A stretch of DNA of 64,000 nt from Vicinamibacterales bacterium. Lineage in GTDB: Bacteria > Acidobacteriota > Vicinamibacteria > Vicinamibacterales > UBA8438. Under the pieces are notes generated by a model that worked only from the letters and a program-made list of their open reading frames with translations, ran no database searches and was not told where the DNA came from. Location of the stretch: NCBI GenBank assembly GCA_036012905.1, contig DASCQF010000139.1:31273-95272 (forward strand). The letters are read 5' to 3'. Positions 9,416 to 52,714 of this stretch are shown one piece after another. Each line of letters opens with the position of its first letter. Position 1 is the stretch's first letter. A program made the position numbers and the translations under genes.

Positions 9416-10690
9416 CTAGTCGTTGTCGGTCGCCGACTTCCTCGCCTCGAGCTCAGCCGCGTACTCCTCCTCGCTGAGGTCGTACCAGCTGATCCACGCG
9501 AACGCCATCTCGTCGACGCCCCGACTCCCGCCACCGGTCCAGTTCTTCGCATCGGGGTTGCCGCGATTCCCCTCGGTGTTGTCGTGATAGCTCAGCACGT
9601 GCAGGGTCGTCCCGGCCGGATACACCGGCTGCTTGTCATCTTCGTAGTTGTAGACGATGTGCCAGCTGAAATCGAAGTTCGCGCAGCTGACCATCTCGGT
9701 CGCGCCCGTCGGGTAAATCAGCTCGAGACACTGGCGTGTCCCCAGAAAGTGCATGTGCGGCTGGAACCCGGTGAGCCTACCGGGCAGATACATCTTCGCG
9801 TAGCCGTCGTGGCGCGTCACCTGCCCAGCCGGGATATCGAGCTCGCCGGCCTGGCCGAGCTGCCGCGAATAGAGAATGTGGTCCGGCTCGAATCCCACTG
9901 GATTGAGCACCATGCCGAGCTCGGTCTGTTCGGTCACTTCCTCACCGATCGAGTGGTAGTGGAAACTGAACCGCACGCGCGAGTCCGCCTCGAACAGCCG
10001 CGCGGTCCCTTCCGGATACACGTCTGCGTTCTTGCCGACCGCGTATTCGTTCAGGAAGGCGTCCCCGGAGCTGTCGCTCAATGGCGCCTCGGGGTCGGTC
10101 ACGGCATAGGTCAGCGCGTGGTGCACCACCCGCAGATCGCCCGCCTTGGTCTGGATGGCCTGGATGTAGCGGTCTTCTGTAATTCCCGACGGCACGACGT
10201 AGTCGCCCCACCAGTCACCTGCCTCGGCCGGTACGGTGTGCAGTGGCGAGGTCACGATGACATCCGGCTCGATCGTCCAGGCGCCGAACTCCTGCAGCTC
10301 GGCCGGTGGCGGTGCATCTTCGGGATTGCCCCGCGGTGCGCCGTTGTCGACCCACTTCGCGATTGTGGCGATCTCATCCTCATTCAACGACCGGTCATTC
10401 TTGAACCCCTGCACGCCGACCTTCGGATCGATGTGCCACGGCGGCATCTCGCGCACCTCGACCTTGTTCTTGATCGACCGTGCCCAGGGGCGGGTCTCCT
10501 GATAGCTCATCAGCGACATCGGCGCCATGTTGTTGGGCCGATGACAGACTTGACAAGAGCGCTGAAAAATAGGCTCAATGTCCTTGTGGAATGTCGGGGC
10601 ATCCGGCACCTCTGCAGCCGCCGCTGCCGGAAGCATCCATGTCGCGGTCACGATCGCCAGAAGCACTGCATGAAGTCTGGCGTTTCTCAT
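9416..10690 (-). CDS. cytochrome c domain fused to a copper type II (PHM/DBH-like) monooxygenase-like domain
   Basis: Track ORF 9416..11047. The ATG at 10690 is preceded by GGAGGTG and gives signal peptide MRNARLHAVLLAIVTATWMLPAAAAA. One CXXCH (CQVCH) in a FHKDIEPIFQRSCQVCH context. Downstream motifs VVHHAL, FHYHS, QPHMHFLG and GGGSRGVDEMAF match the spacing logic of the PHM CuH (HH..H) and CuM (HxH..M) sites. Confidence 0.65.
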   Translation of the reverse strand: MRNARLHAVLLAIVTATWMLPAAAAAEVPDAPTFHKDIEPIFQRSCQVCHRPNNMAPMSLMSYQETRPWARSIKNKVEVREMPPWHIDPKVGVQGFKNDRSLNEDEIATIAKWVDNGAPRGNPEDAPPPAELQEFGAWTIEPDVIVTSPLHTVPAEAGDWWGDYVVPSGITEDRYIQAIQTKAGDLRVVHHALTYAVTDPEAPLSDSSGDAFLNEYAVGKNADVYPEGTARLFEADSRVRFSFHYHSIGEEVTEQTELGMVLNPVGFEPDHILYSRQLGQAGELDIPAGQVTRHDGYAKMYLPGRLTGFQPHMHFLGTRQCLELIYPTGATEMVSCANFDFSWHIVYNYEDDKQPVYPAGTTLHVLSYHDNTEGNRGNPDAKNWTGGGSRGVDEMAFAWISWYDLSEEEYAAELEARKSATDND

Positions 10691-12110: not shown

Positions 12111-12389
12111 ATGGACACGTTCCTGCCGCTGCTGACGATCTTCCTGCTCGCGGTCTTTGTCGGGTGGGAAATCATCACGAAGGTGCCGCCCCTGCTCCAC
12201 ACGCCGTTGATGTCCGGCAGCAACGCCATCTCGGGCATCACGATCATCGGGGCGATTCTCTCGGTCGCCGTCGAGGGCCGCCTGGCCACGGTGCTCGGGT
12301 TCCTGGCGCTGGTGCTGGCTACGATCAACGTGGTCGGCGGCTTCCTGGTCACCCATCGCATGTTGGGCATGTTCAAGAAGAAGGGCTAG
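12111..12389 (+). CDS. pntAB: NAD(P) transhydrogenase subunit alpha, part 2 (membrane)
   Basis: 92 aa with three hydrophobic helices. Conserved TPLMSGSNAISGI motif. Sits between pntAA and pntB. Confidence 0.9.
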   Translation: MDTFLPLLTIFLLAVFVGWEIITKVPPLLHTPLMSGSNAISGITIIGAILSVAVEGRLATVLGFLALVLATINVVGGFLVTHRMLGMFKKKG

Positions 12390-12451
12390 GGCGTGTGCAC
12401 TGAGAAGGCAGGAGGGCTTCGCCGGCTTCGTTTCAAGATCAGGGTCACGTT

Positions 12452-19833: not shown

Positions 19834-20622
19834 ATGCTACGCGACCAATACGAGCAAATGGCCGAACTCCAGGACCACCATTGGTGGTTTGCGGCCAAGA
19901 GGCGGATCGTGGACACCCTCGTCCGGCAGTATGCGACACACGGGGGTGACCGGCGGCCAGCAGCCAACTGGGTGCTCGATGCCGGCTGTGGAACGGGATC
20001 CATGCTCCCAGTGCTGCGCCAGTGGGGCCACGTGATCGGAACGGATGTACACAGGCAGGGCCTACAATTCGTCAGCCATCGACCGGTGCTCGAAGCCGAC
20101 GTCCTGCGCCTACCGTTCGCGGACCAATCGTTCCAACTGGTCGGTTGCTTCGACGTGCTGTATCACCGTCGCGTTGTCGACGTCGAGGCCGTCCTTCGGG
20201 AGCTCCACCGCGTGTGTCGCCAACAGGGACTGCTGGTGCTGACCGACTCCGCCGTGCCAGCCCTGCAAAGCTCGCACGATACTGCCCTGCACGGTGTTCG
20301 GCGCTTCCGGCTCGAGTCGTTGCAAGCGCATCTCGAAGGCGCTGGATTCCGAGTGGTCTACGGCTCGTATTTCCACACGCTGTTGTTCCCCATCGCAGCG
20401 ATCGTGCGATTGACGAAGCGAGCGCTAGAGGGGACACCGGGCCAGCCTGTGTCGGGTAGCGACTTGCACGTCGCGCACCATTCGGATTTGCGTCCCACAC
20501 CACGACTACTCAACAGTGTCCTCGGCAGCGTCTATAGAATCGAAGCCGCCCTCTTGCAACGCACCCGCCTGCCTATCGGGCTCAGCGTGGTCGTCATTGC
20601 CCGGCCGGCTGACGCCGACTGA
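19834..20622 (+). CDS. class I SAM-dependent methyltransferase
   Basis: Motif I VLDAGCGTGSM, then DVLRLPFADQSFQLVGCFDVLYH. Begins 8 nt after the GT2 stop. Confidence 0.75.
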   Translation: MLRDQYEQMAELQDHHWWFAAKRRIVDTLVRQYATHGGDRRPAANWVLDAGCGTGSMLPVLRQWGHVIGTDVHRQGLQFVSHRPVLEADVLRLPFADQSFQLVGCFDVLYHRRVVDVEAVLRELHRVCRQQGLLVLTDSAVPALQSSHDTALHGVRRFRLESLQAHLEGAGFRVVYGSYFHTLLFPIAAIVRLTKRALEGTPGQPVSGSDLHVAHHSDLRPTPRLLNSVLGSVYRIEAALLQRTRLPIGLSVVVIARPADAD

Positions 20623-26402: not shown

Positions 26403-26490
26403 AACGGCGCGCACGTGCGCGCCTCGCGGACGCGGAGTGGGGCCTTGGGGTCCCCGCGCAGCGTCCGCGGGGGCTCGGGGCACAGCCCCG
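26403..26490. repeat. left arm of the inverted repeat flanking rnpB
   Basis: Reverse complement of 27015-27103, with about 7 mismatches in the first ~66 nt by hand alignment. Contains the 18-bp perfect palindrome GGCGCGCACGTGCGCGCC (26406-26423) and hairpins CGCGGACGC...GCGTCCGCG and CGGGGCACAGCCCCG. Confidence 0.85.
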
Positions 26491-26504: not shown

Positions 26505-26963
26505 CCGCCGCAGAGGAACGATAAGCCGAATTCTGTTCCCGGCGCTACGCCCGAGGGCGCGGAACTGGGTGACGACCATTCCTCTAGCCCCGCCATTGCT
26601 GGCAGGATCCAGCGACCTACCCGGAAGCTTCGGACGGGCCGTCCTGATAACGCTTCCCTATTTGGTCTTGCTCCGTGCGGGGTTTAGCCTGCCATCCACC
26701 TTACGGCGAACGCGGTGCGCTCTTACCGCACCTTTTCACCCTTACCCTTCGGCTCACCCGGCTGACGCCGGGCTTGCTCAGGGCAGGCCCGAGGGCCTGT
26801 CTCGAGCTTCGTCGAGAGGCGGTATGTTTTCTGTGCCACTTTCCTTCAGGTCGCCCTGACCGGGGATTACCCGGCGCACTGCCCTCTGGAGTTCGGACTT
26901 TCCTCCCCGAACGGCGCCACGTCGTGACACCGCACGCGGCGGTCGTCTGTCCCTCTACGGCGG
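26505..26963 (-). ncRNA. rnpB: RNase P RNA, bacterial type A
   Basis: The minus strand reads ...GGGGAGGAAAGTCCGAACTCCAGAGGGCAG..., ...GGGTAAGGGTGAAAAGGTGCGGTAAGAGCGCACCGCG..., ...GGAGCAAGACCAAATAGGG... and ...ACAGAATTCGGCTTATCG. These match the universally conserved blocks of E. coli M1 RNA. The P1 helix is formed by CCGCCGTAGAGGGA (5') and TTCCTCTGCGGCGG (3'). A U5 run follows the 3' end. Ends are approximate to a few nt. Confidence 0.95.
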
Positions 26964-27014
26964 ATTGTCAAAGATCAGCTGGGGCTCCGCCCCAGACCCC
27001 GGGGCATCTTCACG

Positions 27015-27103
27015 CGGGGCGTTGCCCCGAACCCGACGCGGGTGCTACGCAGGGACCCCAAGGCCCCGCTCCGCGCCCGCGGGGCGCGCACGTGCGCGCC
27101 GTT
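27015..27103. repeat. right arm of the inverted repeat flanking rnpB
   Basis: Mirror copy of 26403-26490. The same 18-bp palindrome GGCGCGCACGTGCGCGCC sits at 27083-27100, with hairpin CGGGGCGTTGCCCCG at 27015-27029. Confidence 0.85.
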
Positions 27104-27123
27104 ACGTACCTACTGGATCGACT

Positions 27124-27196
27124 GGCGAAGCCACTCTGCTTCTTCTGACTTCTGCCTCCTGACTTCTGACTTCTGACTTCTGACTTCTGACTCCTC
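27124..27196 (+). repeat. dispersed intergenic element: GGCGAAGCC box plus (TTCTGAC)n heptamer tract, copy 1
   Basis: GGCGAAGCC at 27124-27132, then a 10-nt spacer (27133-27142). Seven heptamers follow at 27143-27191: TTCTGAC TTCTGCC TCCTGAC TTCTGAC x4. The tract sits just 3' of the stop codon of the minus-strand regulator gene. Confidence 0.9.
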
Positions 27197-27207
27197 GGGA
27201 ATACCGT

Positions 27208-28578
27208 CTACGCGTCCTGTTCCTGTTTGATCTGATACTGCTCCAGCTTTTTGTACAAATTGCTACGCGGCGTGTCGATCACCTCGGCGGTCTTCGAGAT
27301 GTTCCAGCTGTGTTCGCGCAGCTTCTCCACCAGAAAGGCCCGCTCGGCGACTTCTTTGAACTCTCTCAGGGTGCCCGCCAGATTCGCCGCCACCTCCCCC
27401 GCACCGCCCCGTGCGTCGCTCGGCAAGACCTCACGGGCTTCGGCCGTGTCAATCGTCTCCCCCGGTGTCATCACCATCAGGCGCTCCACCGTATTCCGAA
27501 GCTCCCGCACGTTTCCTCGCCACCGCTCGCGTGTCATCAGATCAATCGCCGCCGGCGTGAACCGCTTGGGCCTGAAGTTGTTTTCCGTGCAAAAGAGATC
27601 GGTGAAGTGCGCGACAAGCCGCGAGATATCCTCACCGCGGTCACGCAACGGTGGCACCTGGATCGGAATGACGCTGAGCCGAAAATACAGATCCTCTCGA
27701 AAGGTGCCATTGTCGATGGCCTCTTCCAGGTTGCGGTTGGTTGCGGCAATCACGCGGGCATCGACTTTGATTGTCCGCGCCGACCCAAGCCGCTCGACCT
27801 CGCCCTCCTGAAGCACCCGGAGCACCTTCGCCTGGGTGCGGAGACTCATGTCGCCGACCTCGTCGAGAAAAATTGTTCCGCGGTCGGCCTGCTCGAACTT
27901 GCCAATCTGCTTCTGCGTCGCGCCGGTGAACGCGCCCCGCTCGTGCCCAAACAGCTCCGACTCGATGAGCTCCTCGGGAAGCGCGGCGCAGTTGACCTGC
28001 ACGAAGCGCTCTTTGCCACGGCGACTGTTCCGGTGAATTGCGCGGGCGACGAGCTCCTTTCCCACTCCGCTCTCACCCTGGATCAGCACCGTGCTGTTGG
28101 TCGGAGCCGCGCGACCAATCGCGTCGGCGACCTGCACGAGCGCTGGACTCTCGCCGACCATCTCGTGCCGAACCTCGGCAAGCTTACGATACGAAGTGAC
28201 CTCTGTCTTGAGCCGACGTTGCTCCAGCGCATTCCGAATGTTCAGGAGGATGTCACCGGTCTCTATCGGTTTGGTCAGACAGGAGAATGCCCCCAGCTTG
28301 GTCGCTTCGCGACCGGTCTCCATCGTGCCGTGACCGGAGATGATGACGACCTCGACAGACTCGTCGATCTCCCGAATGCGTTTCAGCACCTCCAACCCGT
28401 CCATCCCCGGCATCTTTATGTCCAGAAACACGACATCCGGGCTCTCCCGTTCGACCATGCCGAGCCCTTCCTGCCCGCTCCGAGCAAGGAGGCAGTCATG
28501 CCCGGCGTAGTCGATAGCCTGCTTCATCGTGCTCCGAATGGCCTCTTCGTCGTCAACAACCAGTACTCGCGCGTTCAT
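27208..28578 (-). CDS. sigma-54-dependent response regulator (NtrC family)
   Basis: REC domain (VLVVDDE...DVVFLDIKMPGMDG), AAA+ sigma-54 interaction domain (GESGVGKE, GAFTGA, ELFGHERGAFTGA, RFDERV-type region) and a C-terminal HTH (NISKTAEVIDTPRSNLYKKL). Confidence 0.9.
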   Translation of the reverse strand: MNARVLVVDDEEAIRSTMKQAIDYAGHDCLLARSGQEGLGMVERESPDVVFLDIKMPGMDGLEVLKRIREIDESVEVVIISGHGTMETGREATKLGAFSCLTKPIETGDILLNIRNALEQRRLKTEVTSYRKLAEVRHEMVGESPALVQVADAIGRAAPTNSTVLIQGESGVGKELVARAIHRNSRRGKERFVQVNCAALPEELIESELFGHERGAFTGATQKQIGKFEQADRGTIFLDEVGDMSLRTQAKVLRVLQEGEVERLGSARTIKVDARVIAATNRNLEEAIDNGTFREDLYFRLSVIPIQVPPLRDRGEDISRLVAHFTDLFCTENNFRPKRFTPAAIDLMTRERWRGNVRELRNTVERLMVMTPGETIDTAEAREVLPSDARGGAGEVAANLAGTLREFKEVAERAFLVEKLREHSWNISKTAEVIDTPRSNLYKKLEQYQIKQEQDA

Positions 28579-36819: not shown

Positions 36820-37608
36820 CTACCCGTGCCAGCGTCCGGTCAAGACGACCTCGGCCCAACCAGTCAGCCGCATGCCTGCCTCGGTCCAGGTCACGTGCTG
36901 CGTGCCACCGGGTGACACCACGTCGACGTCACGGGAGGCCCCTCCAAAGGCGGCGGCCGCCACCGCGCTTGCACACGCACCGGTACCCGACGCAGCCGTC
37001 GGGCCAACACCGCGCTCCCAGATCAGGATCCTGATCCGCGAGGACGACTCCACCTCGACCAGTTCGACGTTCGACCCGGACGGGAACACGGGGTGCGTCG
37101 CCAAGACCGGACCCAACCGATGCAACCGCGCCTCGTCCACCGGCCCCTGGAGCACGATGCACTGCGGGTTGCCCACCGACAACTCTGCGACCTCTACGGT
37201 TTCTCCGGCCGCCTCGAGCGCTCGTTGACGGAGACCCGTCGGCTGTCCCATCATCGCCTCGAACGTCAGCCGGTCACCGGCCGACTCCACCAACGTCAAC
37301 GGAATCTCCCCGGCATCGGTTTCGATGACCACCTCGGTGACGCTCGGTCTGGCCCGTGTCACGATGGCCGCCAGACAGCGGACCGCGTTCCCAGATACCT
37401 CGGCCACCCCGCCGTCGGCATTGAAGAGCGACATCGTAGCCCCTGCCTCGTGCAGCGCGTACAGCACCAGCCCGTCGGCACCCACACCGGTGTGCCGGTC
37501 ACACACACGCTGCGCCAGCGTCGCGCGCTCCGCCTCCACCGTCTGGTCGATTGGGGCGAACAGAAAATCATTTCCGTAGGCGTGAGCCTTGATCAGATCG
37601 ATTGGCAT
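36820..37608 (-). CDS. dapF: diaminopimelate epimerase
   Basis: KAHAYGNDFLF N-terminus, SLFNADGGVAEVSGNAVRC (first catalytic Cys) and GTGACASAVAA (second catalytic Cys). Confidence 0.9.
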   Translation of the reverse strand: MPIDLIKAHAYGNDFLFAPIDQTVEAERATLAQRVCDRHTGVGADGLVLYALHEAGATMSLFNADGGVAEVSGNAVRCLAAIVTRARPSVTEVVIETDAGEIPLTLVESAGDRLTFEAMMGQPTGLRQRALEAAGETVEVAELSVGNPQCIVLQGPVDEARLHRLGPVLATHPVFPSGSNVELVEVESSSRIRILIWERGVGPTAASGTGACASAVAAAAFGGASRDVDVVSPGGTQHVTWTEAGMRLTGWAEVVLTGRWHG

Positions 37609-37624: not shown

Positions 37625-37680
37625 TTCAGAAGTCAGAAGTCAGGAGGTAGAAGTCAGAAGGAAGCCGGTGGGCTGCCGCC
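37625..37680 (-). repeat. heptamer-tract element, copy 2a (inverted orientation)
   Basis: The plus strand reads TCAGAA GTCAGAA GTCAGGA GGTAGAA GTCAGAA GGAAGCC...GGCTGCCGCC. Its reverse complement aligns with copy 1 (AGAAGTCAGAAGTCAGGAGG[C/T]AGAAGTCAGAAG). It lies 17-72 nt upstream of the dapF start codon. Confidence 0.85.
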
Positions 37681-37734
37681 AGCCTCTGTTCAGCAGTTGC
37701 GTTCGGAATAGACTGTCGCGTCAGTGTTGGAGCC

Positions 37735-37785
37735 GGCGAAGCCCTCCAGTGATCTTCTGACTCCTGACTTCTACCTTCTGGCTCC
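37735..37785 (+). repeat. heptamer-tract element, copy 2b
   Basis: GGCGAAGCC (37735-37743), an 11-nt spacer, then TTCTGAC TCCTGAC TTCTACC TTCTGGC. It abuts the stop codon (37786-37788) of the minus-strand OM-barrel gene, the same position and orientation relative to a stop codon as copy 1. Confidence 0.85.
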
Positions 37786-38640
37786 TCACGGACTCAACGG
37801 ACTCTCGAACACCCAGGTCAGGCCACCCGTGACCCCCACCCTAGGGTCCCGCGACGTGAACCCGGTGAACAGGCCACCGTCGAATCGTACGGTCCCGCGC
37901 GTATAGCGCAACCCAAAAGTCATCGTGGCGCGGGTCTCGGTTCCCGGAGGCGGCGCGCCGCGGCGCGTGCTCGCGCGGCCGTTGATCTCCCCGACGATCT
38001 CCGCTCCCGGGGCAAACGCTCGCGCCAGTGAAAAGCCATAGGTCAAGACGTCGTTTTGCCGGTCGCCGCGCGTCGGATCCGAGAGAATGCCGAGCCCGAC
38101 GTTGCCGACCACGCGAACCGACTCGATCGTCTTGCCGACGAGTAGGGACTGAAAGAAATCGATCGTGTCGAGCCCGAGGCCGCTTTCGTTGCTGGCATTG
38201 GGCAGCCGCGTCGCGAACCGCAGGGCGATCGCGGGCATACGCGCCCCCTCCCCGACAATCTTCACCTTGGCCCCGACAACAATGTCAGCGAAGCTGCTGC
38301 TGGTGTCTCCGGTGACGTCGAGCATGCTCGATAGTGGAGCATCGAATCGATCCGAGATATTCAATCGGCTGAACGAAATGCCGTCGATCTGAATTTCGGC
38401 ATTCGGGCCCATCCCGAAGCTGAGCCCGAGTTGAGGTCCGCGCAGCAGGTTCCCCTCGAGGCCGGAGACCGTAAAGGTCTCGTCCCAGGCCCGATCGATG
38501 CCCGCTTCAAGCAGTATCAGTCCGTCGCCGATCGCTTCCGGGTCCTCGGTCAGCAATGGCCGCTGCTGGGCGGCGACCAGACCGGCTATCAGCCAGATCC
38601 CGAGTACCCAACATCCCACCCTGATCACACGTCGCGTCAT
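37786..38640 (-). CDS. outer-membrane beta-barrel protein (MetA/transporter-like)
   Basis: Signal peptide MTRRVIRVGCWVLGIWLIAGLVAAQ. Alternating beta-strand pattern throughout. Beta-signal-like GGLTWVF is followed by a 6-aa tail, ESPLSP. Confidence 0.65.
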   Translation of the reverse strand: MTRRVIRVGCWVLGIWLIAGLVAAQQRPLLTEDPEAIGDGLILLEAGIDRAWDETFTVSGLEGNLLRGPQLGLSFGMGPNAEIQIDGISFSRLNISDRFDAPLSSMLDVTGDTSSSFADIVVGAKVKIVGEGARMPAIALRFATRLPNASNESGLGLDTIDFFQSLLVGKTIESVRVVGNVGLGILSDPTRGDRQNDVLTYGFSLARAFAPGAEIVGEINGRASTRRGAPPPGTETRATMTFGLRYTRGTVRFDGGLFTGFTSRDPRVGVTGGLTWVFESPLSP

Positions 38641-51490: not shown

Positions 51491-52714
51491 TTGAAGCTCA
51501 ACAAACTCGTGCTCGTTTTCTTGTGTGTCGCCGGGGTTACCCTGTTCTCGTTCGGGTGCGGCGACGACTCGTCACCGTCGTCTCCGGCAGCCCCCAGCGC
51601 GTTCCCAGCGGCGCTGGCCAGCACGGACTCAGCGGTTGGGGTCTCGGTGCGGAACGCGATCGACACGACGTCGCTCGGCACCGACACGGTTGACTTGAAG
51701 GCGACGGCGGCCACGCCCCTGAGCCCGATCAACAACGTCGAGGTTGACGATTTCACCCCAACGCTTACCGCCGCGAATGCGAGCGGCACGTTCAGAGACG
51801 CGACCTTCTCCTACGTGTTCGCGGTCTTCAACGTCACCGGCGGCGGATCGACATTGGTCGAGACCGCCACCAGGGCGCAGGGCGCGACGTCGACGTCGTT
51901 TCAGATCCAGGCGCCGCTCGAAGGCGATTCGAGCTACCAGTGGCGCGTGCGTCCGTTCCTGGATGGCGCATTTGGACCGTGGTCGACGCTCGCCTCGTTC
52001 ACGACGCCGCCGTCCGTCGTGATCGGATTGCCGGTTCCGACTGCCCCGATCAACGGCGCGACGGTGTCCGATCTTCGTCCGGATTTCAACGTCACCAACG
52101 GCAGCGTCGAGGGCGATGCCGGAACGGTGATCTACCAGATTCAGGTGGCACTCGACAGTGGCTTCTCCAATATCGTCACGGAGGAAGGGACGGAGCTACG
52201 CGCTCAGGGTGACACGAACATACACCTTCGGGCCGATCTGGCCGCAGAAACGCACTATTTCTGGCGCGTCCGGGGACGCAATGACGGCCAGGGCAAGACC
52301 GGGTTCCTGCCCATCGGTCAAGCGACGTCGCAAGTGATAGGTGATTGGAGCACGACGCAGGACTTCTTCACACCGGCGGCGCTCCCGCCCGGACCGACGC
52401 CCTTCTGTTGTCCACCGCCCAATCGGCTGGAGATCGTGCAGCAGGTCGGAGACGAAACCGGCTATCCGGACTCGGGCATCAGCGTGACCGACTTCACCCA
52501 GGCTGTGGCCGAACGTCTCAACCAGGAGGATCCCAATTGGGGACGCCGGATCAACGGCAACGGAAATATCGGAAAGGATACGATCGGTTACCGGGTCGAC
52601 GGGTCGGACGACAATCCGTACAAGGTCGACATTGTCGCGGGCGCGACCAGCTCCAGCCCTGTGCTCCACTGGGCCGGGGAGGGGCGACTCGGAGGCTCGT
52701 GGGTCGCGCCCTGA
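51491..52714 (+). CDS. lipoprotein B: two YxWRxR modules plus a conserved CCPPPNRLEIV C-terminal domain
   Basis: Track ORF starts at ATG 51455, but GGAGGA lies 8 nt upstream of the TTG at 51491. That start gives (M)KLNKLVLVFLCVAGVTLFSFGC, a lipoprotein signal. The C-terminal 102 aa are about 81 percent identical to the paralog at 54882..56411. Confidence 0.75.
   Translation: MKLNKLVLVFLCVAGVTLFSFGCGDDSSPSSPAAPSAFPAALASTDSAVGVSVRNAIDTTSLGTDTVDLKATAATPLSPINNVEVDDFTPTLTAANASGTFRDATFSYVFAVFNVTGGGSTLVETATRAQGATSTSFQIQAPLEGDSSYQWRVRPFLDGAFGPWSTLASFTTPPSVVIGLPVPTAPINGATVSDLRPDFNVTNGSVEGDAGTVIYQIQVALDSGFSNIVTEEGTELRAQGDTNIHLRADLAAETHYFWRVRGRNDGQGKTGFLPIGQATSQVIGDWSTTQDFFTPAALPPGPTPFCCPPPNRLEIVQQVGDETGYPDSGISVTDFTQAVAERLNQEDPNWGRRINGNGNIGKDTIGYRVDGSDDNPYKVDIVAGATSSSPVLHWAGEGRLGGSWVAP
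52403..52714 (+). repeat. arm 1 of a ~310-bp inverted DNA repeat (3' end of the lipoprotein B gene)
   Basis: Reverse complement of 54882-55193. The core CAGGAGGATCCCAAyTGGGGrCGCCGGATCAACGGCAACGGAAAyATCGGmAAGGAyACGATCGGyTACCGGGTCGA...GACAATCCGTACAAGGTCGACAT differs at only a few third-codon positions. Confidence 0.85.

Follow-up and report, generated by a model that had tools for sequence, protein, structure and literature searches.

The window, by which we mean the whole 64-kb stretch of DNA analysed here, carries on its minus strand a gene for a sigma-54-dependent response regulator followed by the RNase P RNA gene rnpB, a conserved ORF (ORF284) followed by dapF, and, elsewhere, the pntAB–pntB junction (Table 1). 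A first-pass annotation had described three intergenic (TTCTGAC)n tracts as copies of one dispersed element, and we recovered all three at the positions it gave, far above chance expectation. No other heptamer array in the 64 kb reaches three units, and the window holds 18 two-unit heptamer matches with at most 3 mismatches (3.3 ± 1.8 expected; 18 was reached in 0 of 100 shuffles), 14 of which fall within the three tracts. TRF reported period-7 arrays at 27142-27192 (7.3 copies, 90% matches) and 37626-37660 (5.0 copies), as well as two further period-7 rows of 2.1 copies each at 51871 and 59065; the third tract (37755-37789), with five in-register units and 6 mismatches in total, is too degenerate for TRF. 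The claim of a dispersed element, as opposed to three chance tracts, is supported.

Table 1 Coordinates of the elements and neighbouring genes in the window.
Feature	Position	Strand	Description
Site 1 purine arm (copy 1)	27143..27196	-	GAGGA + 7 units on minus strand: GTCAGAA x4, GTCAGGA, GGCAGAA, GTCAGAA
Site 1 inner module	27119..27142	-	Linker GAAGCAGAGT, then box GGCTTCGCC (27124-27132), then AGTCG
Site 2 upstream arm (copy 2b)	37755..37789	-	Five degenerate GTCAGAA-type units; the first overlaps the ORF284 TGA stop
Site 2 core	37660..37754	-	GATCACTGGAG-GGCTTCGCC (box, 37735-37743), ~50 nt spacer, GGCGGCAGCCC (variant box, 37670-37680)
Site 2 downstream arm (copy 2a)	37625..37659	-	(TTCTGAC)-type x5 on minus strand; ends 17 nt 5' of dapF ATG (37608)
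Fourth, degenerate copy (pnt copy)	12401..12429	+	TGAGAAG GCAGGAG + GGCTTCGCC + GGCTTC
Sigma-54-dependent response regulator gene	27208..28578	-	Response_reg, Sigma54_activat, HTH_8; stop precedes site 1
rnpB (RNase P RNA, class A)	26506..26958	-	165 nt downstream of site 1 box; Rfam match
ORF284	37786..38640	-	Conserved 284-aa ORF without Pfam match; stop abuts site 2
dapF (diaminopimelate epimerase)	36820..37608	-	Start 17 nt past site 2

The gene context of the tracts also agrees with what had been described: 11 nt separate the end of copy 1 from the stop codon of the regulator gene (its purine arm begins 11-16 nt past that stop), copy 2b adjoins and in fact overlaps the stop of ORF284, and in mRNA sense the tracts read (GUCAGAA)n, with an AGGAGG embedded in copy 1. 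The three copies counted in the window all exist, but a fourth, degenerate one had been overlooked between pntAB and pntB, 11 nt past the pntAB stop (12387-12389) and 22 nt ahead of the pntB GTG (12452). Similarly, the GC box said to accompany the tracts is real as the combination of an array with GGCTTCGCC, but the pattern GGCG[A/G][A/C]GCC alone is only weakly enriched (19 matches vs 10.7 expected) and has no match in the inverted copy 2a, to which it had been ascribed and which carries the one base longer GGCGGCAGCCC instead. The exact string GGCGAAGCC is found three times in the window, with heptamer units adjoining each time, the third occurrence being the pnt copy.

Architecture of the element

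The arms consist of tandem GTCAGAA heptamers (consensus KCAGRAR), and each is flanked on its inner side by a short GC-rich module, ...GAAGCCGGAG-GGCTTCGCC-GGCTTC..., that itself looks like a degenerate unit in complementary sense. In a full element, such as site 2, two inverted arms enclose a core of 50-120 nt in the order 5'-(GTCAGAA)n...(TTCTGAC)n-3'; a half element, such as site 1 and the pnt copy, has one arm plus the inner module. The pnt copy lies on the plus strand, as does its gene, i.e., the orientation of the element follows the gene. The arms of site 2 pair in a predicted stem-loop (RNA fold -81.6 kcal/mol, z = -3.6), the base of which is predicted to hold both the stop and the start codon. 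At site 1, a weak 5-bp hairpin (GAAGC/GCTTC) is possible in the inner module, and the array region has no structure beyond that of shuffles (z = -0.9). Sense and antisense fold energies did not differ consistently over 43 pairs, and thus give no indication as to which strand's RNA matters. In Rfam searches rnpB alone passes the gathering threshold, and permissive scans of both sites returned chance eukaryotic matches only (E = 0.06-0.5).

Copies, polarity and turnover in other genomes

A wider search for copies, as the first-pass annotation had proposed, returned numerous further ones in relatives. Three consecutive units, (TTCTGAC)3, were found at no fewer than 119 loci in at least 10 phyla, and in viral contigs they are 4-27 times commoner than three permuted controls. 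Cultured carriers include Nostoc punctiforme, Moorena producens, Epilithonimonas mollis DSM 18016 and Pedobacter montanisoli, and the organism of the window is itself represented in Tara and deep-ocean metagenomes. The array together with GGCTTCGCC was retrieved from 74 metagenome loci (chance expectation <1, which is an estimate from pattern length and not a computed control), corresponding to 59 non-redundant sites, mostly on marine high-GC contigs, with the consensus AGAAGCCGGAGGGCTTCGCCGGCTTCT; the 64-kb window has four copies to set beside these 59 distinct sites in related contigs. The tracts had been described as confined to intergenic DNA, which is true of the window, but some arrays elsewhere lie inside ORFs, where they run in frame as (VRSQKSE)n and mostly in the stop-free sense (36 vs 6). 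The carrier genomes also hold 100 other heptamer arrays in 850 kb, plus one-mutation derivatives, which shows that general slippage contributes.

The inverted pairs follow one order, (GTCAGAA)n...(TTCTGAC)n, in 43 non-redundant pairs vs 0 in the opposite order (29 vs 0 in an earlier count), with a spacing that varies from 3 to 162 nt. About a quarter of the arrays have a partner within 150 nt; the viral contigs, at 1 vs 0, are too few to count. Positions relative to genes rest on gene calls that are crude outside the window. With these calls, the outer end of the array lies 0-21 nt from a stop codon in 30 of 31 scorable elements, the box side has a median distance of ~70 nt to the next gene, and ~79% of the outer ends abut an ORF boundary. 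Purine-sense arrays lie at a median of 11 nt from stops (31/47 within 30 nt), and in about 12 cases a pyrimidine-sense array precedes an ATG by 0-20 nt, with no Shine-Dalgarno sequence. TAG stops are not enriched beside the arrays (15/31 vs 39% background, p = 0.19). Downstream of half elements, an ORF heuristic counted 28 convergent vs 25 co-directional genes; since at 65% GC this heuristic cannot tell real convergent genes from antisense shadow ORFs, we make no claim for convergent genes.

Neither a transposase nor any other recurrent gene was found near the arrays among 173 loci, where the recurrent neighbours were only very large families (two-component or sigma-54 regulators, ABC ATPases) and related phage genomes. 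An array at the stop of a sigma-54 regulator gene occurs in two other loci (L113, L167), an association that we judged to be coincidence because the family is large. IS200 and RAYT probes gave no tblastn match in the collected array loci, which is a weak negative, as the probe sequences were approximate.

The arms grow and shrink by 7-nt steps, as expected of replication slippage. Site 1, with identical flanks, has 7 units in the window, L120 and L121, 6 in L122 and 8 in L123, so that the unequal, slippage-type copy number seen between loci by the first-pass annotation is matched by polymorphism between near-identical assemblies; related species have 5 units (L381) or about 3 (L383). At one orthologous junction, ORF284–dapF, elements arrive, vanish, lose their core or invert it, all within a few percent of protein divergence. 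Across nine relatives this junction ranges from 10 nt without the element up to 184 nt with a full one: it has no array at 10, 21 or 24 nt, an unrelated hairpin at 54 nt, the purine array alone (degenerate, 4 units) at 36 nt in L382, a mini hairpin at 58 nt in L386 and the full element at 167-184 nt. A single CCAGA is present there in L383, and L388 has its core in the opposite orientation to that of the window. Comparison of filled junctions (window, L381, L388) with empty ones (L383, L384, L387) revealed no target-site duplication at site 2.

Homologous cores are present at non-orthologous loci of other genomes; for example, over its whole length the site 2 element shares 70-72% identity with elements found at the unrelated loci L170 and L141/L181. 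Furthermore, copies 1, 2a and L145 have in common the string GTCAGGAGG(C/T)AGAAGTCAGAAG, a non-periodic variant which points to common descent and not to independent slippage. The box GGCTTCGCCAG is identical at site 1 in three species while the flanks diverge, which hints at constraint.

A proposed palindromic intergenic element and its alternatives

Our best explanation, to which we give about an even chance of being right, is that one dispersed intergenic element, non-coding and palindromic, is present at all the sites; it would be REPIN/MITE-like but with microsatellite arms, and tolerated in short operon junctions. Among the roles put forward in the first-pass annotation (binding arrays in 3' UTRs, spacing-dependent promoter modulation, and remnants of a small mobile element) the last fits best and the first is conceivable, and the element looks more like selfish, tolerated DNA than like a dedicated control element. 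It would spread as selfish, non-autonomous DNA, possibly by means of a trans-acting enzyme (REPIN/MITE-like) or by recombination in which the arrays serve as portable homology arms. Survival may be restricted to short, promoter-less junctions, which would explain why the outer ends abut stop and start codons, and the core could flip via recombination between the inverted arms. In polycistronic RNA a full element would form a long stem-loop, which by analogy with REP/BIME and Correia elements could act as a barrier to decay, be a substrate of RNase III or cause mild attenuation; its strength would be tuned by arm length, probably as a side effect and not as a conserved function. Against a mobile element, the intermediate states seen in situ (array alone in L382, mini hairpin in L386) fit local growth equally.

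Local growth alone is what one would have if the tracts were plain microsatellites, arising by in-place slippage from a purine-rich (Shine-Dalgarno-like) seed past the stop, with no mobility and with boxes and inverted partners that are secondary or coincidental. We regard this as unlikely. The L382 dapF junction, with only a degenerate 4-unit array, and L383, with a single CCAGA, are in line with it, as are the abundance of other heptamer arrays and one-mutation derivatives in carrier genomes, the fact that neither transposase nor target duplication was found at the loci and junctions compared, and the statement, from Mrazek as cited in PMC4679880, that among long simple repeats the heptanucleotide class is the most abundant. 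However, independent arrays would not be expected to show a polarity of 43 vs 0, and a quarter of them being partnered within 150 nt is far above independent placement. Also difficult to reconcile with in-place slippage are a non-periodic box conserved at 59 sites, rare variant strings common to several copies, homologous cores at non-orthologous loci, and a unit so much commoner than its permuted controls.

We likewise doubt that the tracts are a selected post-transcriptional operator. On this view, the (GUCAGAA)n located shortly past stops and the (UUCUGAC)n located shortly ahead of starts would be binding sites for a protein (S1, Csp or CsrA-like), or would pair with each other in cis or trans; translation would thereby be coupled, or the stability of the mRNA adjusted, and the number of units would work as a rheostat. 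Precedents are the TAACTGA repeats (PMC4679880), heptamers that lie close to start codons in Nostoc (bioRxiv 10.1101/2022.06.06.494920) and the 7-nt rheostat of H. influenzae hmw1A (PMC12721329). The positional grammar (purine arrays past stops, pyrimidine arrays ahead of ATG) holds across phyla, site 2 has its stop and start codons at the base of a single predicted stem, AAGGAG or AGGAGG motifs lie within the arms, and the site 1 module is kept in three species. Yet the grammar would equally be the geometric consequence of a fixed-polarity palindrome filling a short junction, and close relatives differ in whether the element ahead of dapF, an essential gene, is present, absent or rebuilt. Structure in the array region of site 1 does not exceed that of shuffles, and the box hairpin lacks covariation, its 9-bp stem pairing at 57.9% of positions vs 58.7% in shuffles (the 3' half of the 6-bp stem was fixed by the search pattern, and hence this stem is outside the test); the apparent box stem is palindromy at the consensus level only. 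Moreover, to our knowledge CsrA has not been reported in cyanobacteria, which carry these arrays.

Bidirectional intrinsic terminators, made of an A-rich arm, a GC-rich hairpin and a U-rich arm, are improbable, although they would account for the purine-first order being the only one seen. The architecture is matched on both strands, the polarity rule would follow from it, and the cyanobacterial carriers, as far as we know, are without Rho and rely on intrinsic termination. But in at least 8 pairs, among them those at dapF in the window and in L381, a co-directional start codon follows within 0-20 nt, too close for a promoter to fit between, and the same junction measures 10-36 nt in relatives, which implies that ORF284 and dapF are co-transcribed. 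The U tract (UUCUGAC) is also weak, and the terminator scan gave nothing at site 2 and nothing overlapping site 1, where the four hits of the scan window lie in or beside rnpB. Finally, it is scarcely credible that copy 1, which shares its strand with rnpB and precedes that gene, modulates the rnpB promoter in a spacing-dependent way as had been suggested, since the distance from the box to the rnpB 5' end is 165 nt here vs 33 nt in L383 (owing to an unrelated 89-nt repeat inserted in the window), L389 has no element upstream of rnpB, the remaining copies are not near RNA genes, and a promoter scan found no sigma-70-like promoter at the sites.

With the palindromic intergenic element as the preferred reading, the presence of the heptamer in at least 10 phyla could still reflect a conserved trans-acting factor as an alternative to horizontal spread. 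In its most general form, which we offer as speculation with rather little confidence, the KCAGRAR palindromes would make up one class of miniature mobile DNA that spreads horizontally and has self-extending microsatellite termini, moved by some enzyme or by array-guided recombination; or else the heptamer would be the recognition unit of such a factor, with stop-proximal (GUCAGAA)n and start-proximal (UUCUGAC)n forming a widespread post-transcriptional pairing network. Either, if true, would explain both the purine-first polarity and the recurrence from Acidobacteriota to Cyanobacteria.

The regularities that are new here are the occurrence of one unit in at least 10 phyla, the polarity rule of inverted pairs and the tight fit of the outer ends on ORF boundaries, and the states found naturally at one operon junction form a series (empty, array only, mini hairpin, full element, flipped core). 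Together, they make the function and spread of heptamer repeats experimentally tractable. In practical terms, heptamer arrays are a likely cause of assembly breaks and a source of strain-level length variation, and they can yield spurious ORF extensions in high-GC metagenome-assembled genomes.

Comparison with known repeat systems

Since the STRR work of 1990, heptanucleotide repeats have been a familiar feature of bacterial genomes, and we know of no agreed origin or function for them. The cyanobacterial STRR sequences, reportedly described by Mazel in 1990, are said to be intergenic heptanucleotide arrays. The units of STRR1-3 are CCCCAAT, TTGGTCA and CAACAGT, to which GTCAGAA is unrelated, and STRR were described as simple direct arrays, not as palindrome arms. 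As with STRR and long simple repeats, the present arrays are runs of tandem heptanucleotides longer than chance would give, lying for the most part between genes, with many per genome and with copy numbers that vary; they have the head-to-tail 7-nt units and the whole-unit copy-number variation between strains of a microsatellite. The first-pass annotation did not recognise a described family, which agrees with the full-text literature searched, where no paper contains two consecutive repeat units, but intergenic heptanucleotide arrays as such are an already described kind. Mrazek's long simple sequence repeats, as cited in PMC4679880, include them. In Haemophilus influenzae, the copy number of (ATCTTTC)n at hmw1A/hmw2A changes by slippage and tunes expression via the 5' UTR (PMC8262952, PMC12721329). 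These are likewise intergenic 7-nt simple repeats whose copy number shifts by slippage, but at a single contingency locus of a host-adapted pathogen, upstream of one gene, whereas GTCAGAA forms a dispersed, palindromic, multi-phylum family.

In REPINs, inverted doublets are the replicative unit and singlets are remnants (Bertels and Rainey 2011, PMC3116915). The element may resemble REP/BIME/REPIN sequences in being extragenic and numerous, although some arrays elsewhere lie inside ORFs, and in having inverted doublets predicted to form a hairpin with a spacer; it has in common with them a location at gene ends and operon junctions, singlets that look like remnants and plausible side effects at the RNA level. 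REP arms, however, are unique 20-40 nt palindromes with fixed doublet spacing and a link to RAYTs, whereas here the arms are microsatellites, the spacing is 3-162 nt, and approximate probes gave no RAYT match. Pneumococcal BOX elements have the structure boxA-(boxB)n-boxC, and the Neisseria Correia elements are MITE-like repeats. Both are, like the present element, small, non-coding and intergenic, with inverted ends and stable RNA structures within transcripts, and BOX also contains a tandem module in variable number. The difference is that the variable module here is at the termini and not in the interior, and that no parental IS or target-site duplication was found; of the features of a MITE, the inverted arms are present and the duplication was not seen.

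The closest parallels in position are the TAACTGA repeats of marine Beggiatoaceae, Cyanobacteria and Bacteroidetes, for which orientation-dependent placement beside start and stop codons has already been reported and binding by a protein (S1, Csp or CsrA-like) proposed (MacGregor 2015, PMC4679880). Both have a 7-nt unit, a mostly intergenic location, a patchy multi-phylum spread and indels in 7-nt steps; in both, the stop-containing strand faces starts and the reverse orientation lies just past stops, with no Shine-Dalgarno sequence between repeat and start. The units themselves (GTCAGAA/TTCTGAC here) have only the CTGA core in common (CTTCTGA vs TAACTGA). In addition, nearly every TAACTGA set is direct (169, vs 1 indirect), whereas an inverted partner of fixed polarity accompanies about one in four GTCAGAA arrays, and the GTCAGAA family is distinguished by a conserved non-periodic inner box, by dispersed cores and by Acidobacteriota as a major host.

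Heptamer arrays and their inner module

Tandem arrays of a 7-nt unit (GTCAGAA in purine sense, TTCTGAC in pyrimidine sense) are present at all three positions where the first-pass annotation had placed them, and the window holds 18 matches to a pair of units (up to three mismatches allowed) against 3.3 +/- 1.8 in shuffles. TRF detected no further period-7 arrays of at least three units in the 64-kb window; one arm of site 2 was missed by TRF owing to its degeneracy (see table). The degenerate GC-box pattern that had been described alongside the arrays was only weakly enriched (19 vs 10.7), whereas its exact form GGCGAAGCC occurred three times, each with heptamer units adjoining. The third occurrence led us to recognise a fourth, degenerate copy that was missing from the first-pass list, consisting of two units plus GGCTTCGCC-GGCTTC (12401-12429) within the 62-nt pntAB-pntB junction.

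Coordinates of heptamer arrays and neighbouring features in the window
Feature	Position	Strand or reading	Remark
pntAB TAG stop	12387-12389		pnt junction
Heptamer units TGAGAAG GCAGGAG	12401-12414		pnt junction
GGCTTCGCC	12415-12423		pnt junction
GGCTTC	12424-12429		pnt junction
pntB GTG start	12452		pnt junction
GC-rich element, copy	26403-26490	plus	brackets rnpB
rnpB	26506-26958	minus	287.8 bits; site 1 lies upstream
CTTTGACAATCCGCC	26959-26980		directly upstream of rnpB 5' end
GC-rich element, copy	27015-27103	minus	brackets rnpB
TTCTGAC-type array, site 1	27143-27192	plus-strand reading	TRF 7.3 copies, 90% matches
Sigma-54 response regulator gene	27208-28578	minus	site 1 follows its stop
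GTCAGAA-type array, site 2 (copy 2a)	37625-37659	plus-strand reading	TRF 5.0 copies
TTCTGAC-type array, site 2 (copy 2b)	37755-37789	plus-strand reading	5 in-register units, 6 mismatches; missed by TRF

Two units followed by GGCTTCGCC within 30 nt were found at 74 loci in a metagenome scan (chance expectation <1, estimated from pattern length), which reduced to 59 non-redundant sites, most in marine contigs of 64-68% GC, with the consensus (KCAGRAR)n-G-AAGCCGG-AGGGCTTCG-CCGGCTTCT; the box thus belongs to the element. Since GGCTTC is one base from the complementary unit GACTTC, the box resembles a shortened and degenerate arm of opposite sense, which would make "solo" copies (one arm plus box) asymmetric hairpins. 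No covariation was detected for the 9-bp box stem, where positions paired in 57.9% vs 58.7% in shuffles, and the 6-bp box stem has its 3' half set by the search pattern; we therefore treat the box as sequence conserved through common descent, and the hairpin as a putative RNA structure. Unit variants private to particular lineages, (GGCAGGA)n and (GACAGGA)n, also adjoin the GGCTTCGCC box (L383 at 974-1015 and 20545-20565; L182, L183, L188 and L192; L-numbers denote loci from other genomes, metagenome assemblies or viral contigs), which suggests concerted unit change within genomes.

Length change and turnover at orthologous sites

The exact regulator protein is encoded in contigs of several independent assemblies, in which site 1 has identical flanks and either seven units (window, L120, L121), six (L122) or eight (L123). 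Slippage at this site, previously expected from copy-number differences between loci, is thus observed directly. The site has five units in L381, a species whose DapF is 90% identical, and ~3 degenerate units in L383, where the identity is 81%; its module is absent in L389.

Site 2 fills a 177-nt junction; the two minus-strand genes on either side of it are a conserved 284-aa ORF (ORF284) and dapF. Among relatives with DapF orthologues of 76-90% identity and conserved synteny, full elements (purine arm, core, pyrimidine arm) occupy junctions of 167 nt (L388) and 184 nt (L381), as in the window; L386 (58 nt) has a coreless mini hairpin with 2-3 units per arm and an 8-nt loop, L382 (36 nt) only four degenerate purine units, L389 (54 nt) an unrelated hairpin, and L383, L384 and L387 (10, 21 and 24 nt) no array. 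dapF is required for peptidoglycan and lysine synthesis, and as all these states precede a needed gene, the element must permit read-through and be dispensable. The window core has homologues in L388 and in an element at the unrelated locus L170; the L388 core is inverted with respect to its flanking genes, as recombination between inverted arms would produce. Arm-plus-box modules are likewise homologous at other unrelated loci (L141/L181, L145) and share the non-periodic string GTCAGGAGG(C/T)AGAAGTCAGAAG, which is common to the site 1 copy and copy 2a. These comparisons show arrays growing and shrinking by 7 nt at a time, gains, losses and an inversion at one orthologous junction, and dispersed homologous copies.

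L389, the most distant relative examined, carries unrelated small hairpins at both junctions where the window has heptamer elements (9947-10000, CCCAGGAC-GA-GTCCTGGG; 20259-20330, GGTGGTCAC-TCG-TGGTGACC).

The suggestion that copy 1 modulates the rnpB promoter through spacing is contradicted by a box-to-rnpB distance of 165 nt in the window and 33 nt in L383, and by the lack of any element in L389. The distances differ because an unrelated 89-nt GC-rich repeat is inserted in the window. rnpB is bracketed by two mutually inverted copies of this second dispersed element (86.5% identical over 89 nt), which comprises three consecutive hairpins with a perfect palindrome, GGCGCGCACGTGCGCGCC, at its start; it recurs at marine loci L136/L182, L161, L137, L150, L171, L191 and L381; L383 and L389 lack it upstream of rnpB. 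CTTTGACAATCCGCC is conserved in three species (window, L383, L389), and GACAAT lies at -11 to -6 of rnpB with no correctly spaced -35 to match; the rnpB RNA may arise by processing of a transcript shared with the regulator gene. Scans of sites 1 and 2 returned no promoter or terminator signal.

Spread, polarity and position

The TTCTGAC unit is not private to the window's lineage. A pattern scan located (TTCTGAC)3 at at least 119 loci, and a tally by hand from record titles, among the matches listed, gave Cyanobacteria 30, Acidobacteriota 28, Proteobacteria/Desulfobacterota 14, Bacteroidota/Ignavibacteria 13, Nitrospirota/Nitrospinota 10, Verrucomicrobiota and relatives 9, Planctomycetota 5 and others 10. 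Viral contigs held 54 loci, against 7, 2 and 14 for three composition-matched permutations and 107 for the published TAACTGA repeat. Carrier genomes are heptamer-rich generally, with 100 other perfect arrays (at least three units) in 850 kb, and these include one-mutation derivatives. Two consecutive GTCAGAA/TTCTGAC units were not found in literature searched by sequence. The DNA comes from an uncultured marine acidobacterium, whose DapF matches a protein named "MAG: Acidobacteria bacterium" and is present in Tara data too.

Non-redundant inverted pairs (at least three units per arm, arms within 200 nt) were ordered (GTCAGAA)n...(TTCTGAC)n in 43 cases and the reverse in none (29 vs 0 under a looser test; 1 vs 0 in the viral scan). 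By crude gene calls, purine-sense arrays began at a median distance of 11 nt from the preceding stop (31/47 within 30 nt) and pyrimidine-sense arrays 3' of genes a median of 149 nt away, whilst ~12 pyrimidine-sense arrays stood 0-20 nt ahead of an ATG without a Shine-Dalgarno sequence. In the marine set the array began within 21 nt of a stop in 30 of 31 scorable cases, with the box side ~70 nt (median) from the next gene; an ORF boundary adjoins ~79% of outer ends. GC skew is negative over nearly the whole window, and since for every window copy, the plus-strand pnt copy included, (GUCAGAA)n immediately follows the stop in the upstream gene's mRNA, orientation tracks the gene rather than the replication strand.

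The polarity and position rules are logically linked, as a fixed-polarity palindrome filling a short junction places its purine arm after the stop and its pyrimidine arm before the start. About one-quarter of arrays have a partner. Because pairs are far too frequent for independent arrays, and rare variants (GGTAGAAG and TCAGGAG) recur in both arms of site 2, we take the palindrome as primary. Arrays within ORFs are mainly purine sense (36 vs 6), since the GTCAGAA strand is stop-free while the TTCTGAC strand reads TGA in all three frames per 21 nt; their translation is a (VRSQKSE)n linker, as seen in phage proteins. Linkers of the form ...RSQKSEVRSQ... arise from in-frame arrays in viral contigs L242 and L226 and in L098; two sets of related phage proteins carry them, as does an ABC ATPase near its N-terminus.

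Other sigma-54 (NtrC-family) regulator genes also have a purine-sense array at the stop (L113 313-1722, Nitrospinota MAG; L167 6259-7531, marine contig); in so large a gene family this association is probably coincidental.

Folding, mode of spread and known repeats

The full site 2 element is predicted to fold strongly as RNA (-81.6 kcal/mol, z = -3.6), and the base of its stem holds both the UGA stop and the AUG start; the site 1 array by itself is unstructured (z = -0.9). Any RNA effect would be a side effect set by arm length, as a decay barrier, RNase III substrate or mild attenuation, which are known effects of REP/BIME sequences.

Of the roles first proposed, a small mobile element fits best. 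The family could be REPIN-like, with the inverted doublet as unit and singlets as remnants, as described for REPINs (PMC3116915); MITE-like behaviour would be an equally possible alternative. The microsatellite arms may also supply homology for recombinational spread. No transposase was found near arrays. A 3'-UTR binding-array role is a less likely candidate. The element had no Rfam match, and it lacks the one MITE feature tested, target duplication, which was not found at the ORF284-dapF junction in the window versus relatives. Identity with STRR1-3 or TAACTGA is ruled out by the differing unit.

REP/REPIN placement would require a RAYT, and none was found at the loci compared. Among described systems the nearest is the TAACTGA repeat (PMC4679880), which occurs in Beggiatoaceae, Cyanobacteria and Bacteroidetes. 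It shares the CTGA core, 7-nt period, patchy multi-phylum spread and an orientation rule beside start/stop codons, but is almost exclusively direct, whereas the GTCAGAA family forms palindromes of fixed polarity in which the inner module is conserved. We rate the family as allied both to heptanucleotide repeats and to REP-like palindromes, two kinds already known.
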